From contig JAYOYH010000001.1 of the NCBI GenBank assembly GCA_038153405.1, forward strand, positions 1,493-32,145: DNA of 30,653 bases. The letters are read 5' to 3'. A program made the position numbers and the translations under genes. Positions within the stretch are counted from its first letter, which is position 1. Each line of letters begins with the position of its first letter. This document shows, piece after piece, positions 6,596 through 23,505 of the stretch. The notes below the pieces were generated by a model. That model had not been told where the DNA came from. It worked only from the letters and a program-made list of their open reading frames with translations, and searched no databases. Origin of the DNA: Gemmatimonadota bacterium (GTDB lineage Bacteria > Latescibacterota > UBA2968 > UBA8231).

Positions 6596-6702
6596 AAGGG
6601 CGCAGATTTTTTCCTAATGTAAGCGAAAGTGGTAGTTAAAGTAAATGCCGCTATGCGCGATATACTAAATGAGGCAATGTTGTCTTATATGTCGGCTAAA
6701 AG
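6596..6702. promoter_or_regulatory. AT-rich divergent promoter region
   Basis: A 107-bp AT-rich gap lies between divergent genes in otherwise GC-rich DNA. TATACT, a -10-like hexamer, is at 6661-6666 on the + strand. No convincing -35 element. Confidence 0.55.
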
Positions 6703-9700
6703 TTGAAAAACATGAATAGATCTTTCCTTTTATTGCCCCTGATCGCCGCGCTGCTATTTTCGTTGCAGGACGTTGCTGCACAGTCAGTTGCGCTGTCTCC
6801 GCAGAGCCTTGCGCGAGTGCCTAAAGGGGCCTCGACGAGCAATCCCTACTGGCAGCGCTTAGCCATTGTGCTGACGCGCAATCCGTCGGCGGGCAATACG
6901 ATCTCGATCAGCCTGCCCGCCGATATTTCAATTGCCGATTTGGACGGGGACGGCAGCGTCGAGGACGAAATCGCCCTCGACGACTCGTCGGCGACGGGGA
7001 CCGGCTACACCTCTGTTGCCGGCAGCACGTCCAGCCGGATTCTGCTGACTAGCGGCACGGGCGGCACGGTGGGCAAGGTCTATGTGCACTACCCCATTAT
7101 AACCCCGGCCCAGCCCGTGCTGCCAAACGCCATCTACGGGCAGATTGCCTTTTCCAATCCCAACGAACAGTCCATTCCGGCTGGCGGTCTGGTCCTCGAA
7201 CTCGTCGAGCCCCGCCAGTTGCGTCTGGCCACCTTTTCCCGGCTCTTTGTCGAGAGCGCGGCCGATACGGCGACCAACGCTCAGGGCGATGCCTATCCAG
7301 AGAAGGCGAGTCCGGCTTTTTCTATACCGCTGCCGGATTTGCTGAGCGATCGCCGCGGCCATCTGACGAGCAATGCCATCGCCCGTGCCGGCATCGCCTT
7401 TGCCGACGGCAACGACGGCAACGACACGCGCTATCACTTCTGGCTTTCGCTGCGCGATACGCTGGATCGCGTCGACACTACAGTAGCCGTGCGCGCCACG
7501 AATCGCCTGACGCGGTCCTTTGTCCAGGGGAGCGAGGGCGATTCGCTAGCCGTAGCCTTTGACGCGACGTCTCTGCTCGACACGACGACGTATTACGTGT
7601 ATATGACATCGGACCTAACGGGCCATTTTCCGCTGATGCGGAGCCGTGGCATTGCGGTGCGCCACAAGCCGGTAGTGCTCGGCGTTGGATCGTTTCTCAG
7701 CGGCGACGCCGATTTTATCGACTCGGGACGCCTGCTCAGTTTGGACAAGGGCAGCGCCGGACCGGTCGACAGCACGCGCGCACAGGTGGCGATTCCCTTT
7801 CAGGTCATAGACTACGACGACAGTGCGTCGGTAAAGCTCTTCTACGCGACGGCAGATACGCTCGATACGACGTTTGTGCAGACGACCGGCACGGTGCCCA
7901 ATCGCGTGATTAGCGGTCTGAAGAACGCCGCTTTCGTCGATAGTTCTACGGCGCTATTTGAGGGGCGCGACGCCGAGCTCAACTGGAAAATCGCACGCAA
8001 TGATTCGGTTTTTGTCGCGCGCGGAAACTACTATGTATATGCAGTCATAAGCGACGGCAAGTCGCTGGGCATTCGCCGCAGCACCCACACGTATAACGTG
8101 CGCCACTCGCCCCTATTGATACTGGACAGTCGGGAAAATCGCACGGTTGAAACGGGGGGGAGCAAGGCCGAGCGCTACTACGCCATCACTTGGAACGGCG
8201 ACAACGGTATCGGCGGCGATGTCGCGCGCGGTGACAGCGCGCTGATCGCCCTCTATTACAGCGATAGTAGCGGCTTTGCCGTGCCGAGCGGAGCGGCCGA
8301 ACTGGAGGCCGCTGCCGCTGACTCGACCCGCGATACGCACCGGATCGTATCCGGCCTACAGGAAAAGCCGGACGGTCGCGCCGACAACCAGTACGTGTGG
8401 GATTTATGGCGCTATAAAAATCCCGACGGCGGCGGCGTGCCTAAAGAAGGGGTCGACTACGCGCTCTACGGCATTGTGCAAAACGACTCGACGCGGCGGG
8501 TTGTGCGCTGGAACGACGCCGGCGGCACGGCGCGCAAATTGCGCTTTATCCACCGTCCACATCTGCGCGTCCTCTCTCCGCTGCACCTACTCGAGGTGAA
8601 TGGGCGGAGCAATTTTGAGGTGGTATGGGAGGCGATAGACGTCGATGGGGCGGCCCAGCTCTGGGTGGTGCTGACCTCGGCGGCGGCGGCCAGTGCCTTA
8701 GGCGATTCCACCCATTATGCCGCGCTGGTTGGAGATGGCGCAAGCGATTGGGTGGCCAATTCCGTCGACGGTAGCATGGCTGCAGCCACGGCGCTGAGCG
8801 AAGATTCGACCAGTGCGCTATCCGTTCGTCCCGCGCGCATGACGCGTGCGCTGGATGGGAGTGCGCAGCCGCTGACCAATGGCGACTACTACGCCTACGT
8901 GCTCATTGCCGAATCGGCGTCGGCTGCACCGCCCGACTCGGCGCTGGCGCGGCGGGCCAGCGGGCGCGTGCGCATCAGCGGGCTGGGACCGGCCGGTGCA
9001 GCGGGGCTCGATACGCCGGACGTAGAATTCGTACCGGCCGAACTGACGATGAGTGCGCCCATCGATACGGCGCGCATCGAAGTGCGGCCGCACAGCGGCG
9101 GGGCCCAGGTCGATCTGCTGAGCTTTTTTGCCAGCGTCGATACGACGTTCTTTACCGTGGTCGATCAAGATGCCAGCCTGCCCGGCATCCAGCCGTTTAA
9201 GCTCAACCCCCAACTGAGTGGCATCGTGCTGCGCGATACGCTGTTGGTCGGCGTCGACAGTCTCAATGCGGGCAAGTACCTGCTCGATCTGGTCTATTAC
9301 GAGCAGCAGGGCAACCGCCGCTTTGACGGTGAGCTATCGCTTGCCAGCATTCAATTGGTGTGCCGCGATACGACGGGCGCTTCTACCGTTAGCATTGACC
9401 ACCTAGGCAATCGCCAATCGGCCTTTTTTCGCGACGGGTCTATGGTCGCTTTGCTGCCGCCTGAGACGGCGATGCGCATTCGGATCTTGCCGCGGGGTTC
9501 GATTCGCGGCCGAGTGGCGCTGCAGGGGCGCCCCAATCCGGCTGGGATAGCCACGCTGATGCTGCGCGATCGCAATAGCTTTGCGCCCATCGCCGATTCG
9601 CTCTTTGTGGCGACCAACGATCTGGATCGCGGCAAAGACGGCATACAGGACTCGCTGGCCAGCGACGGCAGCTTTGATCTGTTGAAAGTGCCCAGCGGCG

Positions 9701-10788
9701 AATACCAGCTGGCCGTCCACGTCGATGGCTATTTGGACGGTCAGTATCCGCTGCTGCGCGTCGATCCGGGCACGGAGTTAAACGATATCAATCCAACGCG
9801 GCGGGCCAACGGGATTGACGACCCCGGCTATCTCGTCGCGGGCGATATTACGGGCTATGTCGATACCAATGGGGTATCGATCCCCGACAACGAGATCGAT
9901 CAGCTCGACGTCGACTTCGTCGTAGCCTACTTCGGACAGAAAGTCGTGGTCGCCAGCGCGGGTGCAGGTGCGGGTGCGGGTGCAGCTGCACCTGCGACAC
10001 CGCTGCATCCGGGTCACCTGGCCGATATCGACGGCGATAGTCTGGTGTGGATTGCCGATCTCAACGTCGTTGCCGCCAATTTCAACCAGCAGGGGGTCGC
10101 GCCCGTCTATAAAGTGGCCGTTCCGTTGGTCACTCCTGCGCCGTGGCACACTGTCGGTCAGGAGCGCGATGGTCTGTGGCACGTCGACGTCGTGGCCGAC
10201 GGTCTCGTCGATGCGCGCGCCTTGGCCTTCCGCCTGTTCTTTGACGAGTCGGTGTGGCGGGTTGAGGAGGTGGACGTGCGCGCCTTTGCCGGCCGCCCCG
10301 CGATTGCGGCTCGGAAAATGGGTCGCGGTGAGCTGGCTATGGGCATTGCCCTGAGCGGCTATCAACGCGGAGAGACGGGTTCCAGTCCGGTGGCGCGGAT
10401 TGCCCTGCGCCGCATAGGGGAAGGACCGGCTGCCGTCCAACTGCGCGATACCGAGTGGGTCGATGGGGCGCTGGTGCGCTACCAGCCGCTGGCCGCTCGG
10501 GTGGTGCCGGCGGCCTTTGCCCTATTGCCGAATTATCCCAACCCCTTTAACCCTGAAACGCAGCTGCGCTTTACGCTGCCGGCGCCCGGGCGCGTAACGC
10601 TGGAGATCTACGATGGGCTGGGACAGCGCGTGCGCACCTTGATCGCCGAGCAGCGGCCGGCCGGTTTTTACACGGTGGCCTGGGATGGGCGCGACCAGGC
10701 CGGTCGCGCCGTTGCTTCGGGCGCCTACTTGGCCCACCTGCGCAGCGGAGAATACCGCGCCGTGCGCAAGATGCTGCTGCTGCGCTAA
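6703..10788 (+). CDS. Family A secreted protein (1361 aa): signal peptide, novel N-terminal and repeat domains, cohesin-like, carboxypeptidase-regulatory-like, dockerin-like, second cohesin-like, FlgD-Ig/T9SS type-A sorting-like C-terminus
   Basis: TTG start at 6703 or ATG at 6712; signal peptide ending DVAA|Q. Cohesin-like region ~9020-9490. GSIRGRVALQGR..GSFDLLKVPSGEYQLAVHVDGYL. Dockerin-like LVAGDITG..DNEIDQLD..FG / ADIDGDSLVWIADLNVVAANF. C-terminal LLPNYPNPFNPET..WDGRDQAGRAVASGAY..KMLLLR. Confidence 0.9.
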   Translation: MKNMNRSFLLLPLIAALLFSLQDVAAQSVALSPQSLARVPKGASTSNPYWQRLAIVLTRNPSAGNTISISLPADISIADLDGDGSVEDEIALDDSSATGTGYTSVAGSTSSRILLTSGTGGTVGKVYVHYPIITPAQPVLPNAIYGQIAFSNPNEQSIPAGGLVLELVEPRQLRLATFSRLFVESAADTATNAQGDAYPEKASPAFSIPLPDLLSDRRGHLTSNAIARAGIAFADGNDGNDTRYHFWLSLRDTLDRVDTTVAVRATNRLTRSFVQGSEGDSLAVAFDATSLLDTTTYYVYMTSDLTGHFPLMRSRGIAVRHKPVVLGVGSFLSGDADFIDSGRLLSLDKGSAGPVDSTRAQVAIPFQVIDYDDSASVKLFYATADTLDTTFVQTTGTVPNRVISGLKNAAFVDSSTALFEGRDAELNWKIARNDSVFVARGNYYVYAVISDGKSLGIRRSTHTYNVRHSPLLILDSRENRTVETGGSKAERYYAITWNGDNGIGGDVARGDSALIALYYSDSSGFAVPSGAAELEAAAADSTRDTHRIVSGLQEKPDGRADNQYVWDLWRYKNPDGGGVPKEGVDYALYGIVQNDSTRRVVRWNDAGGTARKLRFIHRPHLRVLSPLHLLEVNGRSNFEVVWEAIDVDGAAQLWVVLTSAAAASALGDSTHYAALVGDGASDWVANSVDGSMAAATALSEDSTSALSVRPARMTRALDGSAQPLTNGDYYAYVLIAESASAAPPDSALARRASGRVRISGLGPAGAAGLDTPDVEFVPAELTMSAPIDTARIEVRPHSGGAQVDLLSFFASVDTTFFTVVDQDASLPGIQPFKLNPQLSGIVLRDTLLVGVDSLNAGKYLLDLVYYEQQGNRRFDGELSLASIQLVCRDTTGASTVSIDHLGNRQSAFFRDGSMVALLPPETAMRIRILPRGSIRGRVALQGRPNPAGIATLMLRDRNSFAPIADSLFVATNDLDRGKDGIQDSLASDGSFDLLKVPSGEYQLAVHVDGYLDGQYPLLRVDPGTELNDINPTRRANGIDDPGYLVAGDITGYVDTNGVSIPDNEIDQLDVDFVVAYFGQKVVVASAGAGAGAGAAAPATPLHPGHLADIDGDSLVWIADLNVVAANFNQQGVAPVYKVAVPLVTPAPWHTVGQERDGLWHVDVVADGLVDARALAFRLFFDESVWRVEEVDVRAFAGRPAIAARKMGRGELAMGIALSGYQRGETGSSPVARIALRRIGEGPAAVQLRDTEWVDGALVRYQPLAARVVPAAFALLPNYPNPFNPETQLRFTLPAPGRVTLEIYDGLGQRVRTLIAEQRPAGFYTVAWDGRDQAGRAVASGAYLAHLRSGEYRAVRKMLLLR
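9958..9996 (+). repeat. In-frame hexanucleotide microsatellite (GGTGCR)4 with decayed copies, encoding AGAGAGAGAAAPA
   Basis: Read directly: gcg ggtgca ggtgcg ggtgcg ggtgca gctgca cctgcg. Confidence 0.75.
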
Positions 10789-10799
10789 GGCGCTACCCC

Positions 10800-13700
10800 G
10801 TGCGACGCTTGTGCACATGGCTGGCGTGTGCGGCGCTAGTGGCCGCGCCGCTGGCCGCCCAAGAAGCCACCCTCTCTCTACAGCCCCTATCCGAAGGGCC
10901 CTTGGCCCCGGGCGACACGCTCGTCGTAGGTATCTACGTCGACGCCGGTGCGCTGGAGTTGACCTCGGCCAGCGCCTATGTGCGCTGCGATCCCTCCTTG
11001 TTGCACATCCTGACTGAAATGCCTACTGACGTTGGATCGATTGCTCCCTTTGTCAGCGGTTCGGCGTGGACGGCAACCGTCTATGAGAATGCCGGCGATC
11101 CGCTTACGGGCCAGCTGAGCTACGTGGCCGTCAGCCGTGCCGCTGCCGACGGCGAGCGCGCCGTAGCCAGCGGCCGCTTTTTGCTGGCCAGTGCGCGTTT
11201 GCGCCTCGTGGGCCTGCCGCCCGATGGGCGGATCGAGCTGAGCTTGGACGCCGGTGGACGCCGCCAGTCGACCTATACGCTGAGTGCTGAACCGGGTGTG
11301 GAAAGGCGTTTCTACATTGCGGAGCGCACATTGGCTGTTGCCGTAGAGGGCGAGGGGTTTGTGCCGCTGCCGGATCGCATCGTGGCCGCGGGCCAGTCGT
11401 GGACGGTCGATCTGGCAACCTATTACTCGGGTCCAATGGAAGCCGTCGTCGCCTGGGGAGCCGATGCCGACGAGGGAATCGACCTGCAGCGCCAAGGATC
11501 GGTGCTGCGTCTGGAGGCCGCTGCCGAGGGTATGGTGCGCTACTGGGCCGATGGGGCCGATGGGCGGCGTTACTTCGGTGCATTCGCGGTGCGCTTTGTC
11601 GCGCAGCCGGTCTATATACAGGCAGGAGGTCTGATCGAAATCGACGAGGACAGCGGTGCCTACCGCATTCCCCTGAGCCGATTTCTGCTCGATGGCGCCG
11701 CAGAGGGCGCTTGGGACGCTTGGGCCGAGGAGGGTGCGGATGTGCGCGTAGAGGGCGATGCGCTGGTTGTAGAACCGGTGCCCGATTGGTCGGGTCAGAC
11801 CGAGTTTGGGCTGCGTTTTTGCGCTATGGACAACACCTGTCAGACGGAGGACTGGCTGCTGCTGGTGCATGCGGACAACGATCCGCCCGCATTCGCCGAC
11901 CTAAAGCCGCTCGAACTTGTCGTGGGCCAGCGCCAGGTCCTGCCGCTGAACAGCTTAGTCCACGACGTCGACGACGACCTCGATGCGCTGGTGCTCGAGG
12001 TGAGTGAGTCGGCGCAGGTGAAGCTGGTGCGCGAAGGCTATATGCTGGTCGTCGAGGCGTTGGCTGTTGGCGATGCAGAGGTCAATCTGAGCGTTGTCGA
12101 TCCGGCCGGGGCTGCAGGCACTGCGGTGTGGTCCGTGCGCGTAAGCGCGCCCAGCGCGGGACCGCAGTTGACCGCATCGCCGGGCCTGCGGGTCATTGTC
12201 GGGCAGGTCGCTACCATCGATTTGAGCGCCTTTGTCGAAGACATCGACTCGGCGCTGGAGGACTTGGCGTGGACGGTGCGCGGCGAGGGCGTGGAGGTCT
12301 CCTGGCAAGAAGAGGCCGGGTCGCTGGTCGAACTCTATGCGACCGAGGGCAGCGCGGCCGCCCTCTATGTGCAGGTGCGCGATCGGCAGGGTAATGAGGC
12401 GACGGCGGTGTGGTCCGTCGCCATCGAAGCCGTCTCCGAGGACGCAGTGGATTTTCCGGCGCCGGTGCCCGTGGAGGGGCCGGGGGACGCGACTCAGCAG
12501 GCGTCCCCCGACTCAGCTGCCAGCACAGTAGACGAGGCAGAAGTATTGCCCGCAGAGGGCGATAGAGCAGACGCGCTGCCCGAGGCAGACGAAGGGTTTT
12601 CCGAAGAGGCCGTCTGGCCAGATGAGGGCGGATCGGCGCCAGCTGCGTCGGCCGTAGGGGATGGGTCCGAGTCCTCGGATACCGCTGAGCAGGTAAAAGG
12701 GGATACAGCCGATGTGCCGGTTGCGGAAGGGGAAGAAACGGCGGCCGACTCTGCAGCCGTGTATGTGGTCGTCGAGGAACAGCAAGACAACGCAGGGGAC
12801 GTTGAGGCCGTAGAGGGTGAAGAAGGGGGTCAATGGGAACTCATGCCCATCGATCTCGTGCAGCTTAGAGCGGGTGCGTCGTGGAGCGTGGAGTTGTCTC
12901 CCTATGTGCAGGGAATCCAACCGGAGGCGCTGCGCTGGAGCGCCGTTGCTGGGCCTGGCGTGGCTGTCAGCCTGGCGGGCAGCCGGGCCGCACTGCAGGT
13001 CGAGGCTGGGTATTACGGCCGGACTCAGTTGGTTTTTCGCGCCGTCGATGCTGTTGGTCGGGAGCGCAGTCTGAGTTTGGTTGTCGAGGTGATTGTGCCG
13101 TGGTCGCTGGCAGATATACCCGATGTAGAGCTGGCTCAAGGCGATTCGCTCTTTATCGATTTGAGCACCTACGTAGACGCCGACGTCGCGTGGTCTGCAA
13201 CCGGCGGAGAGGGCCTGTCTATCGAATGGGCCGATGGGGGTGCTCTGCTCAGGGTAGAGGAAGGCTTTAGCGGCCGCAGTGCGCTGATCTTCACCGCCGT
13301 CGATGAGGCGGGCTACAGCGCCGCCGATGCCGTGCGCGTCGAGGTGAGAGCCGGTGATGAACCTGAAGACAGTGGGGCGCCGGGTGTGGATGCTGCAGAG
13401 GAGGCTGCAGGAGGCGGCTCTGTAGAACTAGCGCTGGGTTGGTGGGGCGACGTTGCGCTGGCGCAGGGAGGGATTTGGACGACGCCGCCGCTCGACGAAT
13501 TGGTGCTCAGCGGCGCGGCGGTCGAAGTGCAGTGGTCGCTGCGCGGCGGCGCGTTCGTCACGGCGCATATCGACAGCGCGCGCCGCGTCGTGCTCAATGG
13601 AGCGCTTGCTCGCATGGGGCGCGAAGTGTTCTGGCTGGTCGCCGTCTGGAACGATCAGCGCCGCGAGGTGGCCCTCGGCGTGCAGGTGGGGGCGCGCGAA

Positions 13701-15092
13701 CCGACGCTGCGTGTGCCGGAAGGGGAAGTGCTGGCCACGCCGGACGGCTACGATTTGGCACACCTGTTGGACGGTGATTCCACCGGCGTGGCGTGGAGTG
13801 GGGAAGCAGACGACGCGCAGGTATACATTGCAGACGGCCTGCTGTTTGTGCGGGCCGAGCCCGGCCTCTATGCGGTCCTCCTGGCAGCGCATCTACCTTC
13901 GGGACGTCGCCTCGGAGTCAATCTGTCTGTGCGCGTGCCGGCCGAAACGGTAGAAGGAGAAGCGCTCGAAGAAGCGCAAGTAAAAGTCGCAGCGGCGGCT
14001 GATGAGCCGCTGGCCCCGGCATTCGATATGCCTGAGCGCATTGAAGTAGAGCGCGGGATGGGTGGGCGCTGGCCGCTGCGCATCGTCGATGGAGACAGTC
14101 CGATCGCAGAGTTGGTCGTCTCGTTGGCCGCGGTGGGAGGGCATGCGCATCTCGAAGCAGATCACCTAGTCGTAGAGGATGCGTTGGAGGCCTTTTACGT
14201 CGTTCTGCAGGTGCGTGATGCGCAGGGTTTGAGCGATTCGTTGCGCATCGATATACAGCCGCGCGATACGATTCCTCCCGAATTTGGACTGAGTGCTCAG
14301 GTCGATGGAACGGGGCGGGTGCGCTGGGTGGTGCACGGCGACGAGCCGCTGGCCACCGCGCTGCTCCTACTCGATGAGCAACCGGTACCGATCTTCGAAC
14401 GGACGGAGCGCCGAGTGACCTGGGAGCACGTTGCCGTCGATCAACAGAACCTACGCCTGCGCCTACTCGTAGGCGATGCGGCAGGCAATGTCGCCTCCGC
14501 GCAGCGCGAGGTCAGCGTCGGGTGGGCGGGCGGTGGACGCGCCGTGCACAGTGCCGACGGGCAGCTGCGCGTGCTGGCAGGGGGAGCGCGCGCACACGTG
14601 CTCATCTACGCCGAGGGAGAAGCCTACCGCATTGAATGCGCCGACGTTGAGCACTTCGAAGTGGCACTGCGCACAGGGCAAACGGAGGAGGGATTAGAAT
14701 ACGGCCAAGCCGGTGCGTGGCAATCGCTGCCAACAGTAGCCAGCAACGGGCTGCTGCGCGCGCGCGTAGACGGGTCTGGATGGCTGCGGTCTGGGGGCAT
14801 GCCGGCAGAGCACATCGCCCAACTAGCCCCCCGTGCTTTTCCCAACCCCTTTAACGCCGCAGTAACCATACGCTTGGAAATGCCAGTGGCCGGACGGCTA
14901 CAGGTGGAAGTGTTCGACGTGCTGGGTCGGTTGGTGCGCAAGGTAATGGCAGAAGAGCGAGCCGCTGGACCGTGGACCGCGCAGTGGGACGGGCGCGATA
15001 GCCGCGCGCGCGCCGTAGCCAGCGGGCCGTACTTAATTGTCGTCGATGCGGCGGGGCAGCGGCGGGTTGTGCCCGTTCTGTTGGTGAGGTGA
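10800..15092 (+). CDS. Family B secreted protein (1430 aa): signal peptide, N-terminal cohesin-like domain, tandem cadherin/Big-like repeats with acidic linkers, FlgD-Ig/T9SS sorting-like C-terminus
   Basis: GTG start 11 bp after the upstream stop; signal peptide ending PLAA|Q. Cohesin-like GDTLVVGIYVDAG..LTSASAYVRCDP..SGRFLLASARL. Repeats NDPPAF..DVDD and EDIDS..LAW. C-terminal AFPNPFN..WDGRDSRARAVASGPY..VLLVR. Confidence 0.88.
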   Translation: MRRLCTWLACAALVAAPLAAQEATLSLQPLSEGPLAPGDTLVVGIYVDAGALELTSASAYVRCDPSLLHILTEMPTDVGSIAPFVSGSAWTATVYENAGDPLTGQLSYVAVSRAAADGERAVASGRFLLASARLRLVGLPPDGRIELSLDAGGRRQSTYTLSAEPGVERRFYIAERTLAVAVEGEGFVPLPDRIVAAGQSWTVDLATYYSGPMEAVVAWGADADEGIDLQRQGSVLRLEAAAEGMVRYWADGADGRRYFGAFAVRFVAQPVYIQAGGLIEIDEDSGAYRIPLSRFLLDGAAEGAWDAWAEEGADVRVEGDALVVEPVPDWSGQTEFGLRFCAMDNTCQTEDWLLLVHADNDPPAFADLKPLELVVGQRQVLPLNSLVHDVDDDLDALVLEVSESAQVKLVREGYMLVVEALAVGDAEVNLSVVDPAGAAGTAVWSVRVSAPSAGPQLTASPGLRVIVGQVATIDLSAFVEDIDSALEDLAWTVRGEGVEVSWQEEAGSLVELYATEGSAAALYVQVRDRQGNEATAVWSVAIEAVSEDAVDFPAPVPVEGPGDATQQASPDSAASTVDEAEVLPAEGDRADALPEADEGFSEEAVWPDEGGSAPAASAVGDGSESSDTAEQVKGDTADVPVAEGEETAADSAAVYVVVEEQQDNAGDVEAVEGEEGGQWELMPIDLVQLRAGASWSVELSPYVQGIQPEALRWSAVAGPGVAVSLAGSRAALQVEAGYYGRTQLVFRAVDAVGRERSLSLVVEVIVPWSLADIPDVELAQGDSLFIDLSTYVDADVAWSATGGEGLSIEWADGGALLRVEEGFSGRSALIFTAVDEAGYSAADAVRVEVRAGDEPEDSGAPGVDAAEEAAGGGSVELALGWWGDVALAQGGIWTTPPLDELVLSGAAVEVQWSLRGGAFVTAHIDSARRVVLNGALARMGREVFWLVAVWNDQRREVALGVQVGAREPTLRVPEGEVLATPDGYDLAHLLDGDSTGVAWSGEADDAQVYIADGLLFVRAEPGLYAVLLAAHLPSGRRLGVNLSVRVPAETVEGEALEEAQVKVAAAADEPLAPAFDMPERIEVERGMGGRWPLRIVDGDSPIAELVVSLAAVGGHAHLEADHLVVEDALEAFYVVLQVRDAQGLSDSLRIDIQPRDTIPPEFGLSAQVDGTGRVRWVVHGDEPLATALLLLDEQPVPIFERTERRVTWEHVAVDQQNLRLRLLVGDAAGNVASAQREVSVGWAGGGRAVHSADGQLRVLAGGARAHVLIYAEGEAYRIECADVEHFEVALRTGQTEEGLEYGQAGAWQSLPTVASNGLLRARVDGSGWLRSGGMPAEHIAQLAPRAFPNPFNAAVTIRLEMPVAGRLQVEVFDVLGRLVRKVMAEERAAGPWTAQWDGRDSRARAVASGPYLIVVDAAGQRRVVPVLLVR

Positions 15093-15158
15093 GTTGGTGT
15101 GGTGCGACGCGCATGGGGGGGTTAAGGGGCTGTTGCGGTCGTGGAGATGTCGGCCGTC

Positions 15159-15192
15159 GGCGGCCATCCATGGGCGGCGCGCCTGTTTTTTT
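15159..15192 (+). terminator. Candidate intrinsic terminator after the first A-B gene pair
   Basis: GGCGGCC (15159-15165) can pair with GGC(G)CGCC (15176-15183) and is followed by TGTTTTTTT. The stem is imperfect with a 10-nt loop. Confidence 0.4.
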
Positions 15193-15418
15193 GCGCTCTA
15201 TCGGCCGCTGGGCACGCGGGTTGGAACGGGGTTTGCTCATTACTTGGCGTCCTGTATGAGAAGTTGAATGCAAACCGACCCGTGGGGGCAGGGATGTTAG
15301 CAAAACCCTACATATTGCGTTGTTCAGTGGGGCACAATTCCACCAAAAGGCGTTGGCACGGGGAAAAAAATTCTCTGTTGATCGGGCACTTTGTGCCGAG
15401 CCAGGTGTTGTACATACT
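15193..15418 (+). promoter_or_regulatory. Probable promoter/leader of the 15419-30529 operon
   Basis: This is the only long gap in the + strand cluster. It has lower GC, an A7 tract at 15364-15370 and an inverted repeat GGCAC-ttt-GTGCC at 15385-15397. Confidence 0.45.
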
Positions 15419-18400
15419 ATGATGATTCGAATGGCCATTCTCCTTCTCTCCAGCTGGTGGGGGCTGGATACGGCGCATGCGCAGACGGTGCAGATCGTGC
15501 CCAGCGAGTTGAGTCTCGTCCCGGTCGCCGGACTGGGCGACGATCGCTATTGGCAGCAGATTGAAGTAACGCTGGCCGTCGATGATCGGGCCAGCGCCGA
15601 ACTGCTGTCGATCGAATTGCCCGAGGCGATGAGCCTGGTGGACGATGACGAGGATGGAGCCTACGATGATGAAGTGCGCGTGGTATATCGCCCCATAGGC
15701 GATGAACAACCCGAGGTATTTGTCGCGGCGACTACCACCGCTCGACGCATCGTCATTGGCAGCGCACAGGGAGCGGCAGCAGGAGGGCAAATCTACGTTC
15801 AGTTTGCCTGCAATAACCCCGTGGCGCCGGTCGAATTGAGCGCGCGCTATGGCCGCATCGATTTTGCCGACGAGGGCGAAACCGATCTGCTCGAAGGGCC
15901 TCAATTGAGCTTTGTAACGCAAGAGGACTTTTCGGCGCTGGGATCGATGCAGGTAGTGCGCTACGCGCCCGTCCTCGGCGTTGAGGCCGATACGTCGGCC
16001 GCGCCCATTGGTCAGTTCTTTCCCGATGCCGCGCAAGTCCTGGTCGACAACTTGCCCGATCTCGTATTTGACGGGCCGGGAGGTTCGTCGAGCGATGCGT
16101 TGGAATTGGGCGACGGAGACGATAGCAACGACGTCGAGTATCGATTTTTCTTTTCTACACTTGGCAATTTGACGCGCGTCAACGAGGACACCGCCATTGA
16201 GGCGTCTATCGCCGGCGGAGATCCCTACATCGAGCGCGAAGGCGCGATGCGCTTGCTGCGTCTCGATATCAGCCAGTTATCTCCTGGCCTCTACTATTTG
16301 TATGTCACGTCTTCGCAGACGGGTTCGATTCCCCTGGGCCGCAGCCGTGGGATCGGCGTACTGCACACACCTCAATTTACCGTAGTCGGGCCACAAGAAG
16401 ACGTCACATTGGACTCTGGTGGACTGTATGACGCGGCGGGCATGGCAACAGGTAAGGGGATTCAGCAGATTGCGTTAGAGTATGAGCTAGTGGATTTAGA
16501 CGATGCCCCCCCTGTATTTCTCTTCTACAGCACAAAAGAGGTGTTAGAGAGCAGCAACGTATCAGCCGATGGCATTGCCGCGGGGGTTGCCAATGCTACT
16601 GCTCTTACGCCCGGCGGTCTCGCGGAATCGGCCGGCGTCTTTACTTGGGATATTCTCGCCGAGGGTTTGATACCTGAGGGCGAGTACTACATCTATGCCG
16701 TGGCCAGCGATGGAACGGGCACGACAATGCAGCGCAGTGAGGGAATCGTGCGCGTGCGCCACTCGCCTTTTCTGCGCCTTGACCCGCTCAACGATCGCGC
16801 CCATATCGGCGTCGATACGATTCGCACTGGGGGGGTGCACCCGCAGCGCTACATCACGTTTAGCTGGGGGCGCAGCGGTATGGATGGCGATAAAGATCTC
16901 GACGACGATGCGCATATCGCGCTCTACTACAGCAGCGAGCCGGCCGTAGAGCAGCCAGGCAGCAGCGGTCTCGCCGTTCCCGGTGGTGCCAGCCAGATGC
17001 TAACGGCGCTGAACGAGGGAAGAGCCGAGCTTGTATTTGGCGATATCCTCGAAGACCCCGACGGCCGCGCCGACAACCAGTATGTGTGGGATCTGTGGTC
17101 GCCGAGTAGAGATGGTATCTCGCTGCCGCAGGAAGGTGCCGTCTACTATGCCTACGGTCTGATTAGCGACGGTGAGAATCGTCGATTGGCGCAGATGAAC
17201 GGCGGGTATTTAAACGATGCCGCATCGCAGATGGTCTTTGTCCATTCTCCGTCTATCCTGCCGGTGCAGCCGGTTGCACCTATCGCCGTTGGTCCTGGTC
17301 TGTATGGGCGCACCACATGGGAAGATGTGGATCTCGACGACGATGCGCGCATTCGCGTGCTGCTCAGCGGCGAAGATTTAGGACCGCATCCCCTATACGG
17401 TGAAGTGAGCGCCGTGCGCAGCTACGTCGTCAATTCGGTTGACGGTCGGGCCGCTGTGCTCGTCGATACGCTATACGATCTGAGCGAGGATTCGCCGCAG
17501 GACCACTTTGACTTTGGCATTGAGCATATAGCCCGCGGTATTTCGACCGACGCGGCGTTGGAAGACGGCGAATACACCCTCTATTTAGCCATTGCCGATG
17601 GAAATAGCTTTGCCGACGCCCAGTGCTGGCGCGCGCCGGGGGCCATACAGGTGCAGGGACTGGGCGAGGCGGCGGCGCCAACCGTGCCGATTCGCCTGTT
17701 GCCCGAGCGCTTTAGCATGGGCAATGGGGGGGCGCTGCAGGTGTTTGAAGTGCGCGTTGATGCCGGCACAGAGGTCGACTTGGTGCAGGCCAGCTTTGTG
17801 GTGGACGGCGATGGTTTTGCCGTCGTCGACCAAGACGGAGAAGCAGAGGGCATTCAGCCCTTCGCTGTTAGCAACGGCTTTTCGCCGGCCAAACTCGTCA
17901 GCAATCGCGTCAGCGGCGACGAGGGCGGTCCGCAGATTCTCACACTCGAATACTTTGAACCCACGGCCAGAGCCATTGCCGGACTCGGCCCCGATAAGAC
18001 GCTAGCTACGTTTCAACTGCGCAGCTTGGAGTTGGAAGGACCGACGGCTATCGAATTGGTGGTCGAGGACGAGGGCGGCGATCTATCGCGCCTGCAGCGC
18101 GACGGTTTTTCCGTCGTCGAACTGGTCGCCGCGCCGCTGTCGCAGGGAGAACTCGTGCCTGGACGCGCCGTGCTGCGCGGCCTGCTGCAGCTAGAGGGCC
18201 GCACCGATATGACGTCGCAGGCTACCGTTGCGCTGCGCACTCGCGGCGATTATCGCCCCTTTGGCGATGTGCTTTTGGCCGAGACCAACGACGTCGATAT
18301 AGATGCCGCCGGTGTGCAGGTGGACGTTGCCGCCGACGGCCGCTTTGAACTATCCGAAGTGCCGGCGGGCCGCTGGAATCTGCACGTCCACGTCGACGGA

Positions 18401-19423
18401 TACATCGAGGGCGTTGCCGCCGATCTAACGCTCCACTCGGGGTTGGTATTGGAAGATATTGTCCCCGCTAGCGTGGGAACTGAAGACATGCCGCGTCTGC
18501 TGGGAGGCGATGTGACGGGATACGTCGAGGAGAGCGGCGTCGGCGTGGCCGATAACGAAGTGACGCTGGCCGACTGGGACTACGTGGCCGCCTTTTTTGG
18601 CACAGAGGTCGACCAGGGTAACGGCAGCGCGCAGGCCGATATTACCGGCGACGGGCGCGTAGATATTGGCGATTTATCGCTGGTAGGCGCCAACTTTATG
18701 CAGCGCGGAGCGCAGCCAGTATACAAAATTCTTCCAAGTGAACAGCGCATCTACATCGACTATATGCGAGATGCTGGAGCCGTGCGTGCCGGCGAAGAAA
18801 TTACGTGGTCGGTGCGTGCGCGCGGTGCCGAAGACGTGCGGGCTTTCGCTCTACAGCTGCACTACGATCAACGCCAATGGGAGTGGGTTGCCGTGCGCGG
18901 TGCCGACGCGTCGCCCGCGCTTTCCGCCCTAGCCGAACGCCCCTACGGCAAGCTGTGGGGACGAGTGGTGATCGGTCGTATGGGCACGTTGATCGGCGGC
19001 GATGGCCGCGTGGCACAGTGGACACTGCGCGCGCGCACCGACGATCCAGCCGAGCCCGTGCTGCGCGCCGATGCGTTTATTGATCGCGCCGACCGGTTCC
19101 TGCCGCTGATGGAGAATGAAGAAGGCAGTAGGGCGAGTCTGCCGCAGGAACTGCGCTTGGAGCAAAATGCCCCCAATCCCTTTAATCCAGAGACGACCAT
19201 CGCCTTTGCCGTGCCGACGTCGAGCCGCGTTACGCTAGAGATTTTCGACGTGCTCGGACAGCGCGTGGTGCGCGTGTGGGATGGGGTGCTGGACGCTGGG
19301 CAGTATGCCATGCGCTGGAACGGGCGCGATACCAGCGGGCGTCCTGCCGCCAGCGGAGTGTACATCTATCGGATCGAGAGCGATCGTCAGGTCCTTTCCA
19401 AACGCATGGTGCTGGTGCGATGA
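15419..19423 (+). CDS. Family A' secreted protein (~1334 aa), full-length paralog of 6703..10788
   Basis: ATG at 15419 gives the signal peptide MMIRMAILLLSSWWGLDTAHA|Q. It shares YWQ, LPDL, RSRGI.V.H.P, PDGRADNQYVWDLW, VVDQD....GIQPF, L.VHVDGY, GD[IV]TGYV and PVYK with 6703..10788. C-terminal LEQNAPNPFNPET..WNGRDTSGRPAASGVY..KRMVLVR. Confidence 0.9.
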   Translation: MMIRMAILLLSSWWGLDTAHAQTVQIVPSELSLVPVAGLGDDRYWQQIEVTLAVDDRASAELLSIELPEAMSLVDDDEDGAYDDEVRVVYRPIGDEQPEVFVAATTTARRIVIGSAQGAAAGGQIYVQFACNNPVAPVELSARYGRIDFADEGETDLLEGPQLSFVTQEDFSALGSMQVVRYAPVLGVEADTSAAPIGQFFPDAAQVLVDNLPDLVFDGPGGSSSDALELGDGDDSNDVEYRFFFSTLGNLTRVNEDTAIEASIAGGDPYIEREGAMRLLRLDISQLSPGLYYLYVTSSQTGSIPLGRSRGIGVLHTPQFTVVGPQEDVTLDSGGLYDAAGMATGKGIQQIALEYELVDLDDAPPVFLFYSTKEVLESSNVSADGIAAGVANATALTPGGLAESAGVFTWDILAEGLIPEGEYYIYAVASDGTGTTMQRSEGIVRVRHSPFLRLDPLNDRAHIGVDTIRTGGVHPQRYITFSWGRSGMDGDKDLDDDAHIALYYSSEPAVEQPGSSGLAVPGGASQMLTALNEGRAELVFGDILEDPDGRADNQYVWDLWSPSRDGISLPQEGAVYYAYGLISDGENRRLAQMNGGYLNDAASQMVFVHSPSILPVQPVAPIAVGPGLYGRTTWEDVDLDDDARIRVLLSGEDLGPHPLYGEVSAVRSYVVNSVDGRAAVLVDTLYDLSEDSPQDHFDFGIEHIARGISTDAALEDGEYTLYLAIADGNSFADAQCWRAPGAIQVQGLGEAAAPTVPIRLLPERFSMGNGGALQVFEVRVDAGTEVDLVQASFVVDGDGFAVVDQDGEAEGIQPFAVSNGFSPAKLVSNRVSGDEGGPQILTLEYFEPTARAIAGLGPDKTLATFQLRSLELEGPTAIELVVEDEGGDLSRLQRDGFSVVELVAAPLSQGELVPGRAVLRGLLQLEGRTDMTSQATVALRTRGDYRPFGDVLLAETNDVDIDAAGVQVDVAADGRFELSEVPAGRWNLHVHVDGYIEGVAADLTLHSGLVLEDIVPASVGTEDMPRLLGGDVTGYVEESGVGVADNEVTLADWDYVAAFFGTEVDQGNGSAQADITGDGRVDIGDLSLVGANFMQRGAQPVYKILPSEQRIYIDYMRDAGAVRAGEEITWSVRARGAEDVRAFALQLHYDQRQWEWVAVRGADASPALSALAERPYGKLWGRVVIGRMGTLIGGDGRVAQWTLRARTDDPAEPVLRADAFIDRADRFLPLMENEEGSRASLPQELRLEQNAPNPFNPETTIAFAVPTSSRVTLEIFDVLGQRVVRVWDGVLDAGQYAMRWNGRDTSGRPAASGVYIYRIESDRQVLSKRMVLVR

Positions 19424-22400
19424 GCGGGTTTATATTGCGCATACTGACCCTATTTATTGGGGTTCTGCTCGGAGCAGTTACGTCCGCCGATGCTGCCGCT
19501 CGTGCCGAAGTGCGGCGTGCCGATGGGGCGAATGCCTTCAGTGCCGAACTGGGTTCTGTGGTCGATATGGAAGTATTTATCGACTCCGGCGATGAAGCGT
19601 TGACGGGCTATAGTCTTTTTGTTTCCTACGACGCCGAGGTGTTTTCTCTGGTGCCGGCCGAGGTGGCTGCCGACGGCGCTGCCGTGCCATTTAGCAGCGG
19701 CACTATGCTGCGCGGTATACCGCTGGTCAACAGCGTCGAGGAAATCGATGGCAGAGTCTACTTGAGCTACGTTGAGGCCGCCGGTGGGTCAGCGCGACTC
19801 AGCGCTGACAGCAGCGGTGTTGTCTTGCGATTTAAACTCGAAGTCGCGCGGCGATCGGTGGAAGGCATCGAGTCCATTCGTTTAGAGGAACTCGGGCACG
19901 ACCGCATTTCGCACTACGTGACGGCGGATGAGCCGGGCATTGAGAAGCGCTTTGCCCAGCCGCTGGGAGCGGCTCAGGTGCGGATCACGGGATTCCGCAT
20001 TTGGCCGATCCCGGATGTAACCGTTGTCGAGGGCCAGTCGCAGGTGGTCTTCGATTTGGATCAATTCGTCGACACGCTGTCGACCGAGGTCCTGTGGACT
20101 CATTCGCGCCTCAGTGAAGTGCCCACCGCCATCGATCCCGACACGCGGGAAGTGACGATGAGTCCGCGCGACGGCTTTGTCGGTAGGCGCGCAATGATTT
20201 TTACGGCCTTTGATATAGACGAGGGCCTGACCGCTGCCGATACGGTGCGCATAACGGTTCTTTCCACTCCGCTCATAACCGATTTCCCGGACACGATTCG
20301 CTTTGCCGAGGACAGTTTGTATCTGGATCTCGACTTTGACGCCTTTGCCGAAGATCTCGACCACGACGTCGCTGAACTGACGTGGCAGGCGGCGCCGACC
20401 GTTCACATGGAAATAGATGTCAATGCCGATAGTCACGTCGCGCTATTTAGTCCTATGGCCGATTTCTTTGGCATCGAGGAAGTGACGTTTATCGTCGCCG
20501 ATCCAACGGGGTTGGCCGATACGGTAGTAACCGTCGTCGAGGTGTTACCGGTTAACGATCCACCCGAGGTCGAATCGCTGCCGCCGGTCTACCCGGTCGT
20601 CGGCAGGCCCTCGCTGGTCATTCCCATCGAAGACATACTGAGCGATCGCGACGATGCCGTTTCGGTGCTACAGGTATTTCTCGAAGTCGAGGGCGGCGTG
20701 CGGGCCGAATTGGCCGACGGCAACTTGTTGGTGGGCAGCTCACAGGCCGGCCGCGGTATCGTCCATATAACGGCGCAGGATACGTCCGGCGCGAGTGCAT
20801 CCACGCGCTTGGTAGTCATTGGCCTGGAGGAGGGCACATCGGTTGGGCCAGAGCTGGATCGCCTGGCGGAAGTGCGTTTTCGCGGCGGGCAGTCGGTAGC
20901 GCTCGATTTAAAAGAGCGCGTGAAGGATGACAGTCCAGCCGAATTGCTCATATGGTCGGTGCAGGCCGATAGCGGGTTGGTCGCGTCTATACCGGGCGGT
21001 GTGCTGCAAATCAGCGGCGAAAGTGGTTTTGCCGGTTCTGCTCATCTCGTCGTTGAGGTTACCGACCCCGAGGGCAATAGCGACGCGCAGCGCCTGCTGG
21101 CCAGCGTGTTGCGCAGCGAAGACGATCTGGGACCGCGCATTGCTGCGGTGGGCAAGATCGGTCTGCGTGAGGACGAAGTCGTGCGCTATGCGCTCGATGA
21201 GTGGGTGGCCGATCCAGACCATGCCGATGACGCGATCAACTGGGAAATTTATCCTACGGCTGGCGTAGAAGCGACGCTGGATGTGGTATCGCGCACGCTG
21301 AGCGTGTGGGCCACCGACGATTTTGCCAGTCCCGCCGAACTCGGTTTGCGCGCCATCGATCCACAGGGCAATAGCCACGAGGCGACTGTGCCCGTGCTGC
21401 TGGCCCGATCGGGAGAGGCGCCGCAGTTGGCCGCGCTGCCCGAGGTGAGCTTGGACAGCGCCAATGCAGCCGTACAGATCGATTTAGATGACTATGCCTA
21501 CGACGATGTCGACCGCGAGAGCGAGCTAGTGTGGCAGGTTGTAGCCGAGCCTGGCGTCCGGGCCTCATTCGATCCGGTGACGCATGACCTCGTGCTGGAG
21601 CGCGACGAAAGCGCGGGGAATATGGGCGGAGCGACACAGGTGCTGTTGCGCGCTATGGACACCAATGGCCAGGAGCGCACCGCGCTGATAACAGTGGGAC
21701 TGCCGCCGCTCTTTTCGCTGCTGGCACTGCCCGATGTAGAGCTATTCGTCGGTCGCGTTGATTCGACCGTTGTGCTGCAGGACTATGCCGTGGGTGGGGG
21801 GGGGAGTGCGCCGCCGTCGTTGGTGTGGAGCGTCGGTCCGGCCGAGCACATCTCCGCCGAAGTCGACGTGCGCACCACGCGCCTCTTTCTTCTATTGACC
21901 AACGCTGGTTTTACCGGAACCGAGGTGCTGCAACTGAGCGCCGTTGATGCTACGGGACGCCGGCAGGTAGTGCCGCTTCAGGTCGTGGTCAACGGTCCTG
22001 GTTTGGCACCGCAGGTGCGCTCTTTGCCGCGCATTGAAGTGGCCGAGGGCGAGGTGGATGCTTCGCTCGATTTGGACGACTACGTCGTTGATGACGATCC
22101 CGACGATGCGCTGGTGTGGAGCGTGAGTGGTCAACAGGTCCTCGCCGTTTCTATCGATCCGGCCACGCGGGTGGTCACGCTCGATGCAACGGAGGCAACG
22201 CCCGCTATTGAGAAACTGCAGTTTGTGGTCATCGATCCATCGGGCAATACGGAACTGGCTGTTATGGAAGTCGTCGTCGTGCGCGGCGGCGCGGCACCTG
22301 TTATTGGAGCCCTGCCTCAGATGTTGCTGACGGCTGGCGATGCAGAGCGGCAAATCGATCTGAGCGTCTTTGTTCAAGATGCCGATACGCCGTCAGAAGA

Positions 22401-23505
22401 CCTGAGGTGGGATGTGCAGGCTCCGGCCGGCATCTCTGCGCGTTTGGAAGGCAGTCGTCTCTTTGTCGCCATTCCCCCAGGCCAGCGGGGCCAGCGCAGT
22501 ATTGCGCTGACGGTGACCGATTCCCAGGGCAATCTGGCGGTGGCGACTATGCAGGTGATTATCGAATTGGATGGGCGGCCTCCCGAGTTTAGGGTCGAGG
22601 TGGGGCGCGATCCGGTATTTAGTGAGTGGGTCGAAATCATAGCCGTGTCTGACGAAATGTTGCTCGACGTGCCGATCATCGCTGTCGAAGGCGATACGCT
22701 GGATGTCAAGGTGCGCGATGACGGTAAATACCAGGCCTCGTTTTACCACGGTCCCGATGAGGAAGATCTCTTTGTCGAAGCGGTGGTTCGCGGCGTTGAT
22801 CGCGCTGGGAACGAGGGGGTGCGCCGGCAGGAAGTCGCACTGGATTGGTTTGATAAAAAGGGGGGAAACGTGCGCAGTCCGGACCTACAGCTCCTCCTCA
22901 ATGTGAGCGATGCGGCTGCGCAACCCGGACAGATGGCCATCATCTACAGGTTGGGCGCTGCCGAGCAGCCGCCCAACAGCGGGGGCTATCCCGTATACTC
23001 AATCGACATGCTGGATGACCGCGCGCTGGCTATGCCGGTGACGATCAACTTTCTCACCTTGGGCGATGCACCGCAGGGAGTCTTGCGCTGGGATGAGACT
23101 ACGGATACGTGGAATGAGTTGGCTACCAGCGTCGACCCGCAAACCGGCTGGCTGGCGGTGACGGTCGACGAGTTGGGCCTGTTTAGAACAGGGCGCGTGC
23201 GCCAGGAAAATATACGCCAAATGGCTTTGCTCAACGGCTATCCCAATCCCTTTGTCGCCGGTTTGGGAGAAATGGCGACGATTGAATACAACATTGTCTC
23301 GCCAGGTCCGGTGCGCATGATGCTGTATAATGCGCTGGGACAGCCCGTGCGCGTTTTGATCGACGAATTTCAAGAGGTTGGCGTGTGGAGTGTCGGATGG
23401 AACGGGCGCGACGCCGCAGGTTCGATCTCAGGTAGCGGCGTCTACTACATCGAGCTCATCGAAGGGGGGCGGCGCCACCGCCGCTCGCTGGTGCTCTTGC
23501 GCTGA
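19420..23505 (+). CDS. Family B' secreted protein (~1361 aa), paralog of 10800..15092: cohesin-like domain, tandem cadherin/Big-like repeats, sorting-like C-terminus
   Basis: ATGA overlap with the upstream stop at 19420-19423 gives the signal peptide MSGFILRILTLFIGVLLGAVTSADA. Cohesin-like MEVFIDSGDEALTGYSLFVSYD. About 9 repeats of the LDDY..DD...L.W type. C-terminal GYPNPF..WNGRDAAGSISGSGVYY..LVLLR. Confidence 0.9.
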   Translation: MSGFILRILTLFIGVLLGAVTSADAAARAEVRRADGANAFSAELGSVVDMEVFIDSGDEALTGYSLFVSYDAEVFSLVPAEVAADGAAVPFSSGTMLRGIPLVNSVEEIDGRVYLSYVEAAGGSARLSADSSGVVLRFKLEVARRSVEGIESIRLEELGHDRISHYVTADEPGIEKRFAQPLGAAQVRITGFRIWPIPDVTVVEGQSQVVFDLDQFVDTLSTEVLWTHSRLSEVPTAIDPDTREVTMSPRDGFVGRRAMIFTAFDIDEGLTAADTVRITVLSTPLITDFPDTIRFAEDSLYLDLDFDAFAEDLDHDVAELTWQAAPTVHMEIDVNADSHVALFSPMADFFGIEEVTFIVADPTGLADTVVTVVEVLPVNDPPEVESLPPVYPVVGRPSLVIPIEDILSDRDDAVSVLQVFLEVEGGVRAELADGNLLVGSSQAGRGIVHITAQDTSGASASTRLVVIGLEEGTSVGPELDRLAEVRFRGGQSVALDLKERVKDDSPAELLIWSVQADSGLVASIPGGVLQISGESGFAGSAHLVVEVTDPEGNSDAQRLLASVLRSEDDLGPRIAAVGKIGLREDEVVRYALDEWVADPDHADDAINWEIYPTAGVEATLDVVSRTLSVWATDDFASPAELGLRAIDPQGNSHEATVPVLLARSGEAPQLAALPEVSLDSANAAVQIDLDDYAYDDVDRESELVWQVVAEPGVRASFDPVTHDLVLERDESAGNMGGATQVLLRAMDTNGQERTALITVGLPPLFSLLALPDVELFVGRVDSTVVLQDYAVGGGGSAPPSLVWSVGPAEHISAEVDVRTTRLFLLLTNAGFTGTEVLQLSAVDATGRRQVVPLQVVVNGPGLAPQVRSLPRIEVAEGEVDASLDLDDYVVDDDPDDALVWSVSGQQVLAVSIDPATRVVTLDATEATPAIEKLQFVVIDPSGNTELAVMEVVVVRGGAAPVIGALPQMLLTAGDAERQIDLSVFVQDADTPSEDLRWDVQAPAGISARLEGSRLFVAIPPGQRGQRSIALTVTDSQGNLAVATMQVIIELDGRPPEFRVEVGRDPVFSEWVEIIAVSDEMLLDVPIIAVEGDTLDVKVRDDGKYQASFYHGPDEEDLFVEAVVRGVDRAGNEGVRRQEVALDWFDKKGGNVRSPDLQLLLNVSDAAAQPGQMAIIYRLGAAEQPPNSGGYPVYSIDMLDDRALAMPVTINFLTLGDAPQGVLRWDETTDTWNELATSVDPQTGWLAVTVDELGLFRTGRVRQENIRQMALLNGYPNPFVAGLGEMATIEYNIVSPGPVRMMLYNALGQPVRVLIDEFQEVGVWSVGWNGRDAAGSISGSGVYYIELIEGGRRHRRSLVLLR

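Follow-up and report, generated by a model that had tools for sequence, protein, structure and literature searches.

A duplicated cohesin-dockerin gene pair of Latescibacterota that co-occurs with flagella and carries predicted flagellar-type promoters

The window, the whole stretch of 30,653 nucleotides analysed here, comes from a Latescibacterota genome of 4.86 Mb that is 93% complete (GCA_038153405.1, contig JAYOYH010000001.1), and its relatives with names are metagenome-assembled genomes deposited as Latescibacterota or Gemmatimonadota. It holds two versions of a gene pair, A-B and A'-B', whose products combine cohesins and dockerins with the C-terminal domain (CTD) of type IX secretion system (T9SS) cargo. 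An earlier sequence-only reading had taken the four genes for an ancient tandem duplication of an obligate, two-gene unit kept in two separately regulated versions. Judged by alignments and trees, the tandem duplication is real and ancient and lies inside a larger conserved system, and the term "obligate two-gene unit" is too strong. That reading had reported neither the X-dockerin in A nor a link to flagella, and both are found here. We put at about even chances that A and B are an enzyme-free, T9SS-exported cohesin-dockerin pair, docked through the X-dockerin, that serves as a motility-timed surface coat or tether. The features that carry this argument are as follows.

6637..6663, + strand: predicted sigma28 (FliA)-type promoter of A-B, TAAAGTAA-N11-CGCGATAT, in 15/16 relatives
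6703..10788, + strand: gene A, likely true start ATG 6712, with a signal-peptide-like N-terminus; in order, five beta-sandwich domains, cohesin, X module, dockerin, cohesin and T9SS/FlgD-type CTD, the folds being assigned by homology to the A' model
9025..9477, + strand: cohesin 1 of A, homologous to the B-type cohesin (HHalign probability 96.3, E 1.7e-9)
9502..10110, + strand: X module plus dockerin of A (X-dockerin dyad), whose profile matches the CipA X-dockerins 3kcp and 2b59
10153..10470, + strand: cohesin 2 of A, from profile matches
10800..15092, + strand: gene B, fast-evolving, with N-terminal cohesin 10911-11357, Big_9/cadherin-like rod with acidic insert, and CTD 14829-15089
15222..15236, + strand: predicted sigma54 promoter of A'-B'-C, TGGAACGGGGTTTGC, in 16/20 relatives
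15419..19423, + strand: gene A', architecture as in A; cohesin 17693-18148, X module 18173-18487, dockerin 18497-18724, cohesin 18755-19093, CTD 19151-19420
19420..23505, + strand: gene B', type-II-like cohesin 19498-20001, immunoglobulin (Ig)/cadherin-like rod about 20005-22533, Ig plus ZU5-like domain 22552-23202, CTD 23221-23502

All four reading frames are open, and A and A' are collinear end to end, as had been claimed: a single BLAST alignment joins residues 13-1361 of A to 8-1334 of A' (32.8% identity, E 5.6e-154; global alignment score z = 65 against 30 shuffles), and the 14-mer PDGRADNQYVWDLW is present unchanged in both. B and B' align in two high-scoring segment pairs (25.9% identity over 891 columns, E 6e-26; 24.6% over 798, E 5e-12) with a global z of 20, where A-versus-B control pairs reach 5-9. 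The B/B' motif pairs quoted earlier all lie in aligned columns, and B carries an acidic low-complexity insert at about residues 550-680 that B' lacks. Similarity through generic domains only is ruled out, because the alignment of A and A' covers their unique N-terminal 750 residues, which have no PDB sequence match. The 11-bp gap between A and B and the ATGA overlap between A' and B' are both in place. In a FastTree phylogeny (100/102 rows), built with long-branch warnings, A and A' occupy one side of a branch with support 100. A is found in five genera of this family, which makes the duplication no younger than their divergence, in keeping with the age first proposed.

The window is one of three A/B loci in the host genome. 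At the second, on contig C9, a gene B3 diverges from A3-A4; the third, A5-B4, spans the overlapping ends of contigs C61 and C46. Six open reading frames (ORFs) of the genome carry a full X-dockerin: A, A', A3, A4, A5 and C, which lies directly behind B'. The gene order is strongly conserved. Where downstream DNA is available, B comes next after A in 16/16 loci, of which two are truncated and one is split; B' comes next after A' in 24/24 and C after B' in 21/22. A5 precedes B4 in 16/16 loci, and B3 flanks A3-A4 in 20/20. Outside this class, a single A is followed by B in 6/6 loci with DNA in family f10, and four A clusters of families f2-f4 end in B. Adjacency across genomes, which had been suggested as a check, thus holds well. 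The two-gene unit stands as a pairing but is not the limit of the system, for A'-B' runs into C and the genome has two more A/B loci. Likewise, adjacency favours an obligate pair, and the unpaired A-type and B-type genes described below speak against it; obligate binding would have to be read from a complex prediction that is rated weak. In G021 and G043, A'-B'-C is present and A-B is missing; in G023, another pair, A6-B6, takes the place of A-B.

The deep split of A, A' and A6 from A3, A4 and A5 is mirrored by a split of B, B' and B6 from B3 and B4, and B, B' and B6 all lack an extra Ig domain found in B3 and B4. A sisterhood of B and B' is not recovered. The B trees recover B3+B4 (support 91 and 99); the N-terminal tree (68/70 rows) leaves B, B' and B6 without resolution, and the C-terminal tree (57/70 rows) joins B6 to B' (support 89), so that B6 may be closer to B' than B is. 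B evolves faster than A, with 25-41% identity to the window in relatives, the closest left out, against 46-65% for A. In genus g9, B is short, at 617-619 residues (G015 L055-L056, G042 L071), and G015 has an extra 1241-residue ORF between B and A'. Proteins of the A architecture also occur in KSB1 and Delongbacteria; in a metagenome scan for such distant loci, matches to the CTD motif drowned out the rest and no synteny was obtained.

The two proteins appear to bring the two halves of a known type of connection. In A, the profile of the tail ranks X-dockerin dyads first (CipA 3kcp, E 3.6e-12; 2b59, E 8.2e-11; 4u3s; 5k39) and then cohesins, for the last domain, while Pfam itself finds Dockerin_1 in 18/52 and Cohesin in 7/52 A members. 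The domain before X is homologous to the B cohesin, and two cohesin-type domains are present in each of A, A', A3, A4 and A5, as in a multi-cohesin scaffoldin. Members from families f2-f4 have three cohesins and two dockerins; each A elsewhere has two and one. The dockerins of the two versions differ consistently in the rows listed, half of one alignment: A has DQLD and W[IV][AS]D, and A' has TLAD and xI[GAQRV]D, with T, L and D of the A' motif invariant in 23/23. The differing positions are ones known to determine dockerin specificity. Residues 22-770 of A', modelled with AlphaFold from 43 sequences (mean predicted local distance difference test score, pLDDT, 88.0; predicted template modelling score, pTM, 0.62), form a chain of roughly five beta-sandwiches. 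This chain matches Fn3/Ig chains and YcnI-like domains with middling Z scores (best 9.4, to YcnI; root-mean-square deviation, rmsd, 2.6; 114 aligned), and a model of 749 residues can mask single-domain matches. Searches with Pfam, PDB profiles and structures revealed neither a catalytic family nor a catalytic fold in A or A', and A was rejected as an enzyme; the Pfam scan gave no carbohydrate-binding or glycoside hydrolase match in A or B. A search of the ESM Atlas returned leads only, all below 0.9.

In B', all 8/8 PDB matches of the cohesin profile are ScaB/SdbA-type, that is, type-II or anchoring cohesins (best E 4.5e-6), so an X-dockerin dyad in the A tail and a complementary type-II-like anchoring cohesin in B and B' are both present. 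Behind the cohesin, Big_9/cadherin-like repeats are found in 46/51 B members. The last 345 residues of B' are modeled as an Ig domain, a ZU5-like domain and the CTD (pLDDT 89.2, pTM 0.83). The CTD folds as that of PorU (Z 11.8, rmsd 2.0, 91 aligned), and the PorZ CTD fold is matched likewise. The ZU5-like domain (22552-23202), directly N-terminal to the CTD, resembles ankyrin 3f59 (Z 10.5, rmsd 2.9, 118 aligned). Prediction of a complex between the A' X-dockerin and the B' cohesin scores 0.58, a result rated weak; of three controls, the best scores 0.00. The runs agree in at least 96% of contacts, with a partner pLDDT of at least 86. The mark that this score passes is reached by 116/157 solved complexes and 2/215 mismatches, and such a prediction cannot tell cognate from non-cognate partners.

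The CTDs and the host genome point to export through a T9SS-type route. A, B, A' and B' all end in the C-terminal Ig-like CTD by which T9SS cargo is recognized; Pfam finds FlgD_ig on all four and Por_Secre_tail on A' and, weakly, on B. About 106 ORFs of the genome match the CTD profile. The translocon and attachment genes are there as well: SprA, several PorV and two C25 (PorU-like) peptidases, one of them adjoining a PorV gene. In the text of PMC11285876 that we drew on, a CTD together with a PorU-like sortase points to outer-membrane anchoring. SprA is found in 160/168 Latescibacterota, and many of these are flagellated; in this host, which has PorU-like and PorV genes and no GldM match, the system is best called T9SS-like.

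The link to flagella comes from a survey of 168 genomes of the phylum, of which 58 have the A core, 61 an X-dockerin and 73 flagellin, with 95 flagellin-negative. All A-positive (58/58) and all X-dockerin-positive genomes (61/61) have flagellin, and A or X-dockerin is found in 0/95 flagellin-negative genomes. FlhA is present in 54/58 A-positive genomes, two of them weakly. In the five carrier families (145 genomes), 63/64 flagellin-positive genomes have A, X-dockerin or B; the lone exception, G083, has weak flagellin matches and lacks FlhA. The split of A with flagellin recurs inside genera g14, g18, g10 and g23 and families f2, f4 and f10. Genus and family codes alone serve to count the independent losses, and the Fisher p of 2e-31 overstates this association. 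A general loss of T9SS or of dockerins behind the patchy occurrence of A is ruled out, as SprA (160/168) and Dockerin_1 (158/168) are present irrespective of flagellin. The B profile matches 80 genomes, including 17 flagellin-negative ones at E 1e-48 or weaker; in the three of these listed with ranges, the rod alone is covered. Flagellin-negative genera g19 and g22 hold from 11 to at least 36 Dockerin_1 matches per genome, without A, X-dockerin or full B.

Predicted promoter motifs suggest a second link between the genes and flagella. The sigma28 consensus has a TAAA-type -35 and a CCGATA-type -10 element separated by an 11-bp spacer, and the sigma54 -24/-12 motif is GG-N10-GC. A motif with sigma28 geometry, TAAAG(G/T)AA-N11-nGCGATAT, stands upstream of A in 15/16 relatives, and the one relative without it is represented by an internal piece of a frameshifted gene. 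The sigma54 motif precedes A' in 16/20 relatives, where 0.14 would be expected from mononucleotide shuffles, and precedes A in 0/16. It also precedes A3 (19/21), B3 (17/22), A5 (12/14) and B of distant families (8/9). These distinct conserved motifs, sigma28-type for A-B and sigma54 for A'-B'-C, support the separate regulation claimed by the sequence-only reading, at the level of predicted promoters. The claim of an upstream region for each pair of its own needs one correction: the 107 bp upstream of A are an intergenic region common to A and the divergent gene g2. A matrix built from the A and g2 sites has 19 matches above 13 bits in the genome, one before flgM (Pfam E 7.5e-15) and one before A5, and fliA is present. 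Strict sigma54 matches lie upstream of genes in 30/66 cases, among them a flagellin. According to the text seen of PMC3930126, middle flagellar genes of Vibrio, Pseudomonas and Campylobacter need sigma54, and late ones, flgM included, need sigma28. A marine RNA run holds 15% of the words, and its short low-depth contigs on A, B, A' and B' are unable to show transcription. Scanning the region for sigma70 promoters and terminators gave chance levels (6 versus 4.3 and 14 versus 13.2). Strong sigma28-type sites also lie at C7:52538, C27:23575, C51:2895, C46:30678 and C1:69748, and two of these precede genes for a HEAT-repeat protein and a globin-domain protein. The genome has nine Flagellin_N matches and, besides FliA, nine strong sigma70-family matches.

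These observations can be arranged into a working model. A and B would leave the cell by the T9SS-type route through their CTDs, and the C-terminal end of B would be fixed to the outer membrane by a PorU-like sortase. On its roughly 8-9 Ig repeats, B could hold its cohesin about 30-40 nm out, as estimated from length. The X-dockerin of A would dock on this cohesin as CipA does on SdbA, leaving the two cohesins of A free for other partners: additional A-type proteins, C-type proteins or dockerin-only ones, g2 for example. Through the old duplication, A-B would have come under a late, sigma28-type promoter and A'-B' under a sigma54 one, and the dockerin differences at recognition positions may give each pair its own specificity. 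Expression of A-B and A'-B' would then start together with that of the flagellar genes, and their products would make up a coat or tether on the surface of motile cells. Such a role on swimming cells is likely because the genes occur only in flagellated members and have predicted flagellar-type promoters.

Several observations weigh against this model. The GldM model is unmatched in the genome, but it is silent in control genomes too. Scores of 0.60 or less account for only 18/157 solved complexes and for both passing mismatches, and since like complexes (2b59) are solved, the passing complex prediction may reflect memory. Nor is the partner of the X-dockerin pinned down, as cohesin 1 of A is of the same kind as the B cohesin. 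Six A loci in four genomes of f2-f4 (G129, G130, G131, G154) have no adjacent B, and a B4-like gene in G021 has no A alongside. As for regulation, the sigma28 pattern was drawn from the A upstream regions themselves, flgM ranks only 8 of 19 among the matrix matches, the others being no known flagellar genes, and sigma54 sites also precede groEL-like and glnA-like genes. Distant-family A genes rarely have either motif (sigma28 in 3/21, sigma54 in 4/21). None of the A/B genes lies in a flagellar cluster, and neither A nor the X-dockerin is matched in nine genomes from five other families that do have flagellin. Finally, related genomes are not independent, and flagella and A/B genes could both have been lost on a change of lifestyle.

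A bolder form of the model, which we consider doubtful, is that scaffoldin/anchor pairs exported by the T9SS make up a structure in Latescibacterota that is coupled to the flagellum and has not been described before, either a sheath of the filament or a coat of the motile cell. The pairs would be wired into a sigma54-then-sigma28 flagellar hierarchy, and repeated duplication would have given as many as five A-type and four B-type proteins, with codes private to their dockerins. The proteins might even be part of the flagellum: after T9SS export, a sheath, coat or polar collar of cohesin-dockerin proteins would be assembled on the filament or around it, with the sigma54 (middle) and sigma28 (late) copies made in that order. 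The strict nesting of A and X-dockerin within flagellin-positive genomes would suit this, as would the 5-10 flagellin matches that carriers often have and a promoter pair that fits the RpoN-then-FliA order given in the text seen of PMC3930126. We nevertheless find it unlikely, since the genes have no physical linkage to flagellar clusters, a flagellin-binding domain was not identified, and nine flagellated genomes of other families do without them. The CTD and PorU-like sortase suggest the outer membrane as the anchoring site (PMC11285876, as far as its text was available), and one A5-B4 locus lies among glycosyltransferase-like genes, as in cell-surface glycoprotein loci.

If lifestyle is the confounding factor, A and B could instead be a cellulosome-like scaffold for enzyme display or particle adhesion in free-living cells, lost together with flagella in host-associated or sessile lineages. 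The X-dockerin and type-II cohesin parts are those of cellulosomes, 12 ORFs of the genome match a second dockerin profile, including an FGE-sulfatase-domain protein, and a CTD-bearing scaffoldin with dockerin enzymes has been proposed in Cloacimonadota (PMC8542988, in the text seen). This explanation is distinctly unlikely: flagellin-negative genomes keep their many dockerin proteins and lack A and B, A has two cohesins only and no carbohydrate-binding or catalytic match, and lifestyle leaves the sigma28-type motif common to flgM unexplained. In another arrangement, A would polymerize by itself, its X-dockerin binding a cohesin of another A to make an S-layer-like mesh, with B as a co-regulated accessory adhesin. 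Every A has the cohesins and the dockerin for this (three and two in f2-f4), its cohesin 1 is homologous to that of B, several A copies have no neighbouring B, and B diverges faster. It is hard to reconcile with A-B adjacency held across classes, even in genomes with one X-dockerin protein, and with the deep split of A mirrored in B; we regard it as improbable. The preferred reading remains the exported, docked coat or tether of the motile cell.

The closest known systems each share part of this picture. The S-layer of Tannerella forsythia is made of two proteins, TfsA and TfsB. Like these and other T9SS cargo of Bacteroidota, A and B have a C-terminal Ig-like CTD of PorU/PorZ fold, a host with SprA, PorV and C25 genes, and adjacent giant co-transcribed genes; they differ in that A and B are not mutual paralogues, carry cohesin-dockerin modules and belong to a flagellated host. 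The clostridial cellulosome (CipA X-DocII/SdbA; ScaA/ScaB) provides the best matches for the cohesin-X-dockerin tail of A (3kcp, 2b59, 4u3s), and the single N-terminal cohesin of B matches only ScaB, SdbA and related anchoring cohesins. Here, however, the host is a diderm and a T9SS-type CTD replaces the SLH or sortase anchors named as the cellulosome types in the text seen of PMC9012536. In addition, A has only two cohesins, one of them behind the dockerin, neither A nor B matches a carbohydrate-binding module (CBM) or glycoside hydrolase, and the genes track flagella. In the portion of PMC11557425 consulted, a cellulosome is recognized by a multi-cohesin scaffoldin gene together with dockerin-bearing glycoside hydrolases; we do not class A/B as a cellulosome because such hydrolases are not shown. 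Pfam finds no glycoside hydrolase in the dockerin proteins of the window, the other ORFs with the second type of dockerin being outside that scan.

Outside the Firmicutes, cohesin and dockerin proteins with CTDs are also predicted from the genome of the uncultured Ca. Stygibacter (Cloacimonadota). Its scaffoldin has tandem cohesins with CBM2/CBM3 and its hydrolases bear dockerins, unlike A/B, and the text seen does not describe paired A/B genes, an X-dockerin or a flagellar link (PMC8542988). Anaerobic methanotrophic (ANME) archaea likewise have cohesins and dockerins and are not thought cellulolytic; their proteins vary between relatives, whereas the A/B architecture is fixed across classes, and the role of these modules outside cellulosomes is described as open in the text seen (PMC9012536). 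The RpoN/FliA hierarchies of Vibrio, Pseudomonas and Campylobacter use both motif types found here (PMC3930126, in part), but the products in our case are T9SS-type cohesin-dockerin proteins encoded outside flagellar clusters. Some of these proteins may figure among the "cellulosome-affiliated enzymes" in Latescibacteria for which PMC7081726, in the text seen, cites Farag 2017. Cohesin and dockerin are not mentioned in the main text of Youssef 2015 (PMC4454575). Our literature search, limited to the best 20 of 65 for the flagellar query, returned no publication on Latescibacterota cohesin-dockerin pairs or on a flagellar link of dockerins or cohesins.

The cohesin-dockerin pairing itself is of a known kind, and the flagellar coupling is the surprising part. 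It would join two systems that are usually apart, T9SS-type export and the flagellar sigma54/sigma28 program, in a fixed and widely conserved pair with a named plug and socket, differences at recognition positions and a motility context. If the bolder form of the model is true, the cohesin-X-dockerin chemistry of cellulosomes also has an old, enzyme-free and motility-linked role in bacteria of the FCB (Fibrobacterota-Chlorobiota-Bacteroidota) group. The binding questions can be approached with small recombinant domains.

The remaining features of the window are the following.

1946..6595, - strand: gene g2, divergent from A, with NHL propeller, B-like Ig rod and C-terminal dockerin of the second type, without CTD
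6689..6715, - strand: predicted sigma28-type promoter of g2, TCATGTTT-N11-GCCGACAT, in 13/15 relatives
15170..15196, + strand: terminator-like hairpin and T run between B and the A' promoter; region-wide, such sites are no commoner than chance
15361..15375, strand not assigned: near-palindrome GG(G/A)AA...TT(C/T)(C/T)C in the A' leader; the pattern, counted without a chance control, is in 14/20 relatives
23518..28473, + strand: gene C, with BNR/Vps10 propeller, ASH/HYDIN Ig domains, FG-GAP repeats, cohesin, X-dockerin and CTD

The start of A is probably ATG 6712, because AAACATGA is conserved in relatives. The -35 element of the g2 promoter overlaps the A start codon, so conservation of this motif may partly have another cause. 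The near-palindrome is a candidate activator site. C follows B' after a gap of 12 bp, and its C-terminal 550 residues show homology to the corresponding part of A and A' (E about 1e-31). Convergent with g2, positions 2-1942 encode a large protein with a second-type dockerin and a C-terminal FGE-sulfatase domain. Close behind C (28491-30529) come a glucosaminidase-family gene and a polysaccharide deacetylase gene, a position kept in the own genus and G011, with D alone in G013, and not in G021 or G012.

At the A5-B4 locus (C61:10138-14338, C46:5107-25375; L224, L225), two TPR membrane proteins are encoded upstream, one with a PMT mannosyltransferase match (E 2e-6); downstream lie genes for a TPR protein and a 493-residue protein without Pfam match, which looks conserved in other families, and glycosyltransferase-like genes. 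These glycosyltransferase-like and PMT neighbours suggest that A and B are glycosylated. A stand-alone protein of 219 residues (L223:3724-4383; C1:85723-86382), which has a single B-type cohesin and no Pfam match, is possibly an adaptor or cap. In G129, the C-like gene does not lie within a flagellar cluster; behind this C orthologue (L229:7656-13196) is a gene for a 441-residue protein with a cohesin, two Ig repeats and a dockerin, likely an adaptor, and G130 has a similar gene.

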